This document shows, in pieces, positions 24 through 402 of a DNA stretch of 402 nt. The position numbers and the translations under genes are program-made. Source of the DNA: a phage; sequence record MW984358.1, one strand, 5' to 3'. The first letter of the stretch is position 1. Each line of letters starts with the position of its first letter. The notes under the pieces were generated by a model that saw only the letters and a list, made by a program, of their open reading frames with translations, was not told where the DNA came from and ran no database searches.

Positions 24-402
24 TGTATTTGGTGTGTGGGGGAGCCTTGCGGAGCCTTTTGGTGGAGGTTCGGCCGAAACTGTTGAAAGTTGTTTAGCAA
101 AATCCCATACAGAAAATTCATTTACTAACGTCTGGAAAGACGACAAAACTTTAGATCGTTACGCTAACTATGAGGGCTGTCTGTGGAATGCTACAGGCGT
201 TGTAGTTTGTACTGGTGACGAAACTCAGTGTTACGGTACATGGGTTCCTATTGGGCTTGCTATCCCTGAAAATGAGGGTGGTGGCTCTGAGGGTGGCGGT
301 TCTGAGGGTGGCGGTTCTGAGGGTGGCGGTACTAAACCTCCTGAGTACGGTGATACACCTATTCCGGGCTATACTTATATCAACCTTCTCGACGGAATCC
401 TC
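1..402 (+). CDS. gIII: Filamentous phage M13 gene III (minor coat/adsorption protein pIII) as an N-terminal peptide-display fusion; partial at both ends. Leader frame has codons at 3-5 ... 21-23; pIII frame has codons at 61-63 ... 400-402; the two are offset by +1 across the 37-nt insert.
   Basis: Frame with codons at 73,76,... translates without stops to AETVESCLAKSHTENSFTNVWKDDKTLDRYANYEGCLWNATGVVVCTGDETQCYGTWVPIGLAIPEN-(EGGGS)3EGGGT-KPPEYGDTPIPGYTYIN..., which I recognise as mature pIII N1, linker and N2. Upstream 3-23 encodes VPFYSHS, the end of the pIII signal peptide as found in M13KE. No in-frame ATG in the window, so the start lies upstream. Confidence 0.93.
2..7. other. KpnI/Acc65I site (GGTACC), the 5' library cloning site of M13KE-type vectors
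   Basis: GGTACC read directly at 2-7, in the expected position relative to the TCT CAC TCT leader end. Confidence 0.9.
24..60 (+). other. Displayed-peptide library insert, 37 nt (36 expected for a 12-mer NNK library); contains an apparent single-base insertion
   Basis: Lies between leader end TCT (21-23) and spacer GGT GGA GGT TCG (61-72). Leader-frame codons 24-47 (tgt att tgg tgt gtg ggg gag cct) all end in G/T; pIII-frame codons 46-60 (ctt gcg gag cct ttt) also all end in G/T; the two registers differ by one base. Confidence 0.85.
61..72 (+). other. Gly-Gly-Gly-Ser spacer (GGT GGA GGT TCG) joining displayed peptide to mature pIII
   Basis: Exact spacer sequence as I recall it for Ph.D.-type libraries, in frame with mature pIII. 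Confidence 0.85.
71..76. other. EagI site (CGGCCG), the 3' library cloning site
   Basis: CGGCCG read directly at 71-76, spanning the Ser-Ala-Glu codons as in M13KE. Confidence 0.9.
89..110 (-). other. Annealing site of the standard -28 gIII sequencing primer (recalled from memory)
   Basis: + strand GTTGTTTAGCAAAATCCCATAC at 89-110 is the reverse complement of the primer as I remember it. Confidence 0.55.
157..176 (-). other. Annealing site of the standard -96 gIII sequencing primer (recalled from memory)
   Basis: + strand CGTTACGCTAACTATGAGGG at 157-176 is the reverse complement of the primer as I remember it. Confidence 0.55.
274..330 (+). repeat. gIII: Glycine-rich linker G1 of pIII, encoded by near-perfect 15-bp tandem repeats (EGGGS x3 + EGGG)
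   Basis: Units gagggtggtggctct (274-288), gagggtggcggttct (289-303), gagggtggcggttct (304-318) and partial gagggtggcggt (319-330). Confidence 0.9.
331..402 (+). other. gIII: Start of pIII N2 domain (F-pilus-binding domain), truncated by the window edge; last ~6 codons diverge from the expected sequence
   Basis: Translation TKPPEYGDTPIPGYTYIN matches pIII N2; the following codons read L-L-D-G-I-L where I recall P-L-D-G-T-Y. Confidence 0.8.

Follow-up and report, generated by a model that had tools for sequence, protein, structure and literature searches.

An M13KE phage-display read with one base too many between leader and pIII: a probable read error weighed against a possible rescued frameshifted clone

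Peptide libraries of the Ph.D. type are built from NNK codons (PMC9697088), and of 6.94 million deep-sequencing reads from a naive Ph.D.-12 library, 5233 (0.075%) were frameshifted, a figure that still counts non-viable genomes. These frameshifts were ascribed to oligonucleotide synthesis, and the clones bearing them yield no infectious virions (PMC9697088). Frameshifted display clones have nonetheless been known since 1998: in frame-disrupted N-terminal fusions to p3 or p8, frameshifting is needed for phage propagation (PMC6259096), where Carcamo 1998 and Goldman 2000, known to us through that citation, are given as the primary reports of frame-disrupted, active display clones, and library clones decoded via substantial +1 or -1 frameshifting are reviewed by Atkins et al. 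2016 (PMC5009743). The +1 signal of prfB is defined by AGGGGG, separated by 3 nt from CTTT (or from a T run that tRNA-Phe decodes), and by an in-frame TGA with a C after it (PMC12421855). Here we consider a phage record, MW984358.1, in which the leader and pIII portions of a display clone stand in different frames, and ask how it compares with these systems.

The M13KE clone and its frame break

Judged by its sequence, the window (the whole stretch of DNA that we analysed, 402 nucleotides) is a read across the M13KE cloning site into gene III of a phage-display clone of the Ph.D.-12 type. The identification of M13KE rests on finding together both published vector junctions, the two gIII primer sites (-28 and -96) and the N1 domain of pIII. 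The features are as follows:

1-23, + strand: 3' end of the gene III leader (…V P F Y S H S), TGGTACCTTTCTATTCTCACTCT; error-free
2-7, + strand: KpnI/Acc65I site GGTACC of M13KE, within the leader end
24-60, + strand: library insert, 37 nt as written, TGTATTTGGTGTGTGGGGGAGCCTTGCGGAGCCTTTT; one base over 12 NNK codons
61-72, + strand: GGGS linker, GGTGGAGGTTCG, matching GGTGGAGGTTCGGCCGAAAC of the published M13KE primers (PMC5925455)
71-76, + strand: EagI site CGGCCG of M13KE, read from the sequence
73-385, + strand: mature pIII, comprising the N1 domain, the glycine-rich linker and the start of N2; error-free against M13 / M13KE in the alignment
84-86, + strand: TGA in the leader frame, fixed vector sequence in which ACT GTT GAA is read as C TGT TGA A
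89-110, - strand: site of the -28 gIII sequencing primer, matching exactly the primer that seven papers print
157-176, - strand: site of the -96 gIII sequencing primer, matching exactly the primer in PMC5925455
386-402, + strand: error-laden read end, with two substitutions and two deletion events (4 nt) against M13

Positions 1-23 are identical to the vector portion of the M13KE forward primer, …GTGGTACCTTTCTATTCTCACTCT (PMC5925455), and, by comparison with the primers of that paper, both vector junctions are in place, …GGTACCTTTCTATTCTCACTCT on the 5' side of the insert and GGTGGAGGTTCGGCCGAA on its 3' side. Downstream, 70-395 is 98.5-98.8% identical to M13/f1 gene III, as befits a pIII of the M13mp/M13KE lineage, and the translation from 61 matches the Pfam family PF05357 (Phage_Coat_A; E=4.7e-28). 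A T at 103 gives Ser for Pro in mature pIII (AKSH), unlike both wild-type M13 references; since it lies inside the exact match to the -28 primer, we regard it as a difference of the vector lineage. In the alignment, C177 agrees with the M13 isolate JX412914 and not with NC_003287. At 273-330 a 15-nt unit (TGAGGGTGGCGGTTC), repeated in tandem 3.9 times, encodes (EGGGS) repeats; these belong to the glycine-rich linker between N1 and N2 and are a normal feature of M13. M13KE is a type-3 vector, in which the sole gene III carries the insert.

The quality of the read differs along its length. The alignment reveals no errors in 61-385, and 1-23 is likewise exact, whereas the last stretch departs from M13 gene III in that CCT has become CTT at 386 and GGCACTTATCCGCC is read as GGAATCCTC. 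The errors in 386-402 imply that the record was not quality-trimmed, and the deletion events among them that indel-type errors do occur within this read. As the record runs far past the -96 site, the standard primers were not those used for it.

The first-pass annotation had counted 37 nt between TCT (21-23) and GGT (61-63) and had placed the leader and pIII frames +1 apart; both statements proved exact, the leader codons beginning at 3, 6 and so on to 24 and the pIII codons at 61. Its translation of the leader frame (C I W C V G E P C G A F W W R F G R N C, then the TGA at 84-86) was reproduced letter for letter; the leader frame thus reads CIWCVGEPCGAFWWRFGRNC up to that stop. The frame break as written is arithmetic on the sequence, in which chance is no issue. 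Because the TGA belongs to the fixed vector, every insert of 3n+1 nucleotides that lacks an earlier stop terminates at 84-86, and in our simulation 48% of random inserts of 12 NNK codons plus one base (NNK12+1) had no leader-frame stop within the insert. Translation would accordingly end after 20 post-leader residues, and the earlier statement that pIII would be truncated is correct under established M13 biology.

The length of the whole record is 134 codons exactly, and its pIII frame has no stop from the first base on (WYLSILTLVFGVWGSLAEPFGGGSAETV…); it may have been trimmed to this frame and not to that of the leader. The first-pass annotation had also considered that a compensating -1 change further upstream in the leader might remove the frameshift. 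In that case the 37 nt would be real and the pIII frame would be read throughout, and it is true that this frame is open across 1-60 (WYLSILTLVFGVWGSLAEPF) and that its product there is hydrophobic and ends in S-L-A, conceivably a signal-peptidase site. However, the pIII frame runs into a TAG directly 5' of the window for any deletion upstream of that TAG, the intact cleavage region VPFYSHS (1-23) would be out of frame, and a second, unobserved mutation is required; we therefore regard such compensation as highly improbable. In the vector, the bases before the window (…CCTTTAG, followed by TGGTACC…) are such that this amber codon closes the pIII-frame stretch across the leader, and an amber TAG is suppressible in the supE library host (PMC9697088).

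Searches for relatives of the clone returned nothing: no paper among those searched matched the peptides readable from it (CIWCVG…, VFGVWGSLAEPF and others); the viral, metagenome and genome contigs that we scanned had zero matches to this insert, and hence no independent copy; and the same contig collections had zero M13KE clones with inserts of 18-48 nt.

Placing the extra base in the NNK pattern

The codon design of the library provides a means of locating the superfluous base. In the leader frame, third positions are G or T in codons 24-47 and then fail (TGC, GGA, GCC), while the pIII frame conforms in codons 46-60. We removed each base of the insert in turn and counted violations of NNK, on the assumption of a design of 12 NNK codons. 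A deletion anywhere in 45-50 leaves 0 violations, and at any other position between 1 and 3. The interval is entered as follows:

45-50, + strand: CCTTGC, the suspect interval for the extra base and the sole interval whose shortening by one base restores 12 clean NNK codons

Hence, under the assumption of a 12-mer NNK design, the extra base lies in CCTTGC at 45-50, outside both the run of five G and the run of four T. The insert as written departs from a Ph.D.-12 clone (12 NNK codons, 36 nt, in frame) and becomes one once a base at 45-50 is removed; in other words, with the extra base placed there, the record is a single base away from being an ordinary library member. Depending on the base taken out, the peptide is CIWCVGE-L/P-AEPF (CIWCVGELAEPF, CIWCVGEPAEPF), CIWCVGEPSEPF or CIWCVGEPWEPF. 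The first-pass annotation had directed attention to the G-run and to the CCTT and TTTT runs as places to inspect. The G-run and TTTT are disfavored, removal of a G from the former leaving one violation (AGC) and of a T from the latter three, while the CCTTGC interval comes out clean.

Two further patterns in the insert bear on an alternative origin. An 8-nt direct repeat, GGAGCCTT, is present on the + strand at 41-48 and 51-58 with a start-to-start spacing of 10 nt; a repeat of at least 8 nt arises in simulated random NNK12+1 inserts with p = 0.0073. In the corrected 12-mer this repeat would encode a repeated Glu-Pro (…GEP.AEPF). Moreover, 24-50 (TGT ATT TGG TGT GTG GGG GAG CCT TGC) is an exact TGT-(NNK)7-TGC, that is, a CX7C core, and simulated X12+1 inserts combine TGT at codon 1 with TGY at codon 9 at a frequency of 0.0013. 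The insert length can then be written as 37 = 27 + 10, and we considered that the clone might derive from a CX7C library, with 27 nt in frame at 24-50 followed by an imperfect 10-nt tandem copy giving a net +1, in which 51-60 (GGAGCCTTTT) would be the copy of 41-50 (GGAGCCTTGC). Such a copy would yield an NNK-clean 3' frame automatically, positions 51, 54 and 57 copying the K positions 41, 44 and 47, so that the NNK test leaves this origin standing, and custom libraries of the CX7C type in M13KE exist (bioRxiv 10.1101/2025.05.12.648809). Against this, it calls for several rare events, namely a 10-nt duplication and, at 59-60, the change of GC to TT by two substitutions; a 12-mer with a single additional base is by far the more parsimonious account. 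The TGC is also separated by ten bases (51-60) from the linker GGTGGAGGT, to which it would be directly joined in a C7C clone, and GCT is absent after TCT 21-23. In the commercial Ph.D.-C7C design GCT precedes the TGT, and it would have to have been lost or been absent here. We accordingly give a CX7C origin little credence; the frame problem and any rescue would in any case be unchanged by it. The repeat and the TGT-(NNK)7-TGC pattern, both noticed after the fact, remain coincidences that the 12-mer reading does not explain.

Candidate slip sites and the origin of the extra base

If the 37 nt are real, infectivity would demand that ribosomes change frame by +1 (or -2) somewhere past the leader cleavage site but ahead of the TGA at 84-86. 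We listed all leader-frame codons in this interval, and two sites allow perfect +1 re-pairing:

38-42, + strand: GGGGG, candidate G_GGG_G slip site, at which GGG 39-41 re-pairs perfectly at 40-42 (+1)
57-60, + strand: TTTT, candidate TTT_T slip site, at which TTT 57-59 re-pairs perfectly at 58-60 (+1)

A shift at G_GGG_G is predicted to give CIWCVG/SLAEPF-GGGS (the slash marking the shift), i.e., CIWCVGSLAEPF-GGGS, with the N-terminus CIWCVGSLAEPFGGGSAETVESCLAK. After a slip at TTT_T, in whose context the Trp codon UGG occupies the A site, the next codon is GGT 61-63 in the pIII frame, and the product would be CIWCVGEPCGAF joined to GGGS, with the N-terminus CIWCVGEPCGAFGGGS…. A Shine-Dalgarno (SD)-like GGAG lies at 51-54, 2 nt on the 5' side of TTT_T, and a GGGGGAG at 38-44. 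Weaker candidates are CCT_T at 45-48, where two of three positions re-pair and the product would be CIWCVGEP/AEPF (CIWCVGEPAEPF; N-terminus CIWCVGEPAEPFGGGS…), and a perfect -2 option in which GTG 36-38 re-pairs at GTG 34-36 within GTGTG (N-terminus CIWCVWGSLAEPF…). In simulation, one or more usable perfect +1 sites turn up in 17% of random NNK12+1 inserts (p=0.17) and two or more in 2% (p=0.02). Perfect +1 sites are thus mildly enriched in this insert, a feature that was chosen after the sequence was seen.

Several other routes to the pIII frame were examined and set aside. A shift at the TGA itself was rejected, for the preceding TGT cannot re-pair on GTT. Hops between matched codons (GGA 51-53 to GGA 64-66, GAG 42 to 52 and CCT 45 to 55) are conceivable, but they come without a context like that of T4 gene 60, where the hop context includes a stop or a hairpin. 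The RNA of 24-120 folds at -29.8 kcal/mol (z = -2.0; 6 of 200 shuffles fold at least as well), and the predicted hairpin pairs GAGCCTTT of the insert (52-59) with GGAGGTTC of the vector linker (64-71); it holds the TTT codon itself instead of lying downstream of it and is thus unpersuasive as a stimulator. Internal initiation was likewise rejected: GTG 34-36, the sole start-like codon of the pIII frame there, would yield a pIII lacking the signal peptide that its export requires. Rescue by transcriptional slippage is unlikely in that no homopolymer between 24 and 84 is longer than the five G and the four T, while slippage of the E. coli RNA polymerase takes an A or T homopolymer of about 7-9 or more.

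The two alternatives that the first-pass annotation had offered, an indel error in the sequence and a real clone kept alive by recoding, are the right ones and are backed by the literature, though the sequence alone cannot decide between them. On balance, we lean, by somewhat more than an even chance, toward an artefact of the record, namely a spurious base in CCTTGC at 45-50 of a read from an ordinary M13KE NNK 12-mer. A single-pass, untrimmed read would have gained one base within 45-50, presumably in base-calling or editing and not in the DNA. The physical clone would then carry a 36-nt in-frame insert and display, ahead of GGGS-pIII, CIWCVGE(L or P)AEPF (or …EPSEPF / …EPWEPF); with such an insert no recoding would be needed. 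An artefact is favored because one deletion at 45-50 restores 12 perfect NNK codons, because the unedited record has indels in its last 17 bases, because the vector has a single gene III and truncated pIII is non-infectious (PMC9697088) while the clone was evidently propagated and sequenced, and because real frameshifts are rare in naive Ph.D.-12 reads, at the 0.075% cited above. By our own weighting, an insertion error in 37 nt of good Sanger sequence has a frequency of ~0.1-0.3% and real viable clones with shifty sites one of ~1e-6 to 1e-5, and the artefact stands over the real clone by roughly 4-16 to 1 before a large uncertainty; the overall weights, a little better than even for the artefact and well below even for a real rescued clone, are rough priors and not measurements.

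Three observations speak against an artefact. The insert is flanked by 23 and 325 error-free bases, and the local quality thus appears good. Sanger insertions favor long homopolymers, and, given the 12-codon design, the NNK test excludes the runs of five G and four T. Finally, the insert has two perfect in-frame +1 sites and is free of leader-frame stops; inserts with two or more such sites are those that would be favored if viability of a frameshifted clone were under selection. The competing account, which we consider possible but distinctly the less probable, is that the 37 nt are real: an n+1 product of oligonucleotide synthesis with its extra base at 45-50, infectious via low-level +1 slippage, in which a few ribosomes would shift before the TGA at 84-86 to make full-length peptide-pIII, most plausibly at TTT_T or G_GGG_G. 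Besides the clean flanks, the placement of the base outside the long homopolymers and the pair of perfect +1 sites before the first stop, it draws on precedent: rescued frame-disrupted clones in filamentous display are documented (PMC5009743, and Carcamo 1998 and Goldman 2000 as cited via PMC6259096), frameshifted molecules are present in the Ph.D.-12 library (PMC9697088), tRNA-Phe slips on a T run naturally in some prfB genes (PMC12421855), and low-level shifting on a G run rescues indels in the herpesvirus thymidine kinase (TK) gene (PMC5009743). On the other side, read errors greatly outnumber viable frameshifted clones, the slip sites were picked out after seeing the sequence, and these sites have no strong stimulators, the A site holding neither a stop nor a very rare codon and the SD-like spacing being 2 nt and not 3. 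The absence of strong stimulators implies a low expected efficiency for a vector in which the shifted product would be the only source of pIII. The narrower proposition, that all pIII of the clone is made via +1 slippage at a stop-independent sense-codon site, either GGAG-CC-UUU_U-GG, where an SD-like element stands very close to a codon on which tRNA-Phe can re-pair perfectly, or G_GGG_G, is tentative and a shade less probable than this account as a whole.

The peptide to be assigned to the clone depends on which account holds. A read error would make it CIWCVGE(L/P)AEPF; if the ribosome shifts frame, the displayed peptide would be CIWCVGSLAEPF, CIWCVGEPAEPF or CIWCVGEPCGAF; and a naive read-back of 12 codons from the linker gives VFGVWGSLAEPF, which is wrong in every scenario. 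Were slippage true, the insert would represent a minimal +1 recoding signal selected from a library, displaying a peptide unlike any naive translation of its DNA. The useful outcomes of the analysis are the placement of the suspect base at 45-50, the prediction of a peptide for each scenario and the warning regarding VFGVWGSLAEPF.

Relation to known display clones and recoding signals

The record offers nothing beyond known ground: the choice lies between a trivial read error in a standard clone and another frameshifted display clone. In the latter case, a confirmed instance would be one further example of a known phenomenon and raise no new question, with a modest bonus if the shift occurred at a stop-independent, SD-assisted UUU_U. 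With a Ph.D.-12 / M13KE 12-mer clone it shares the KpnI-leader junction, the GGGS linker, the EagI site, the -28 and -96 sites, the N1 domain and the NNK pattern, and it differs in having 37 nt instead of 36 and in the leader and pIII being out of frame. With the clones of Carcamo et al. 1998 PNAS and Goldman et al. 2000 FASEB J, as far as these are represented in the literature citing them, it shares an insert of non-3n length in an N-terminal pIII fusion for which recoding is needed; there, the frameshift and the displayed product were shown experimentally, whereas the present case is known from one read. In prfB (RF2), to which GGAG-CC-TTT_T (51-60) bears a loose resemblance, an SD-like purine element stands just 5' of a pyrimidine slippery run. 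The element is present here (GGAG; GGGGGAG), though not as long as the AGGGGG consensus; CC (55-56) serves as the spacer, 2 nt against 3 nt; TTT 57-59 is followed by TGG and not by an in-frame stop, so that there is no C following a stop; and the TGA at 84-86 lies 24 nt downstream, where it follows TGT and precedes A. Lastly, the 'savior indel' of the herpesvirus thymidine kinase (PMC5009743) combines, like the G_GGG_G at 38-42, a one-base indel with rare slippage on a G homopolymer, but the run here is of five G as opposed to seven, the extra base lies outside it, and the slippage is a candidate only.
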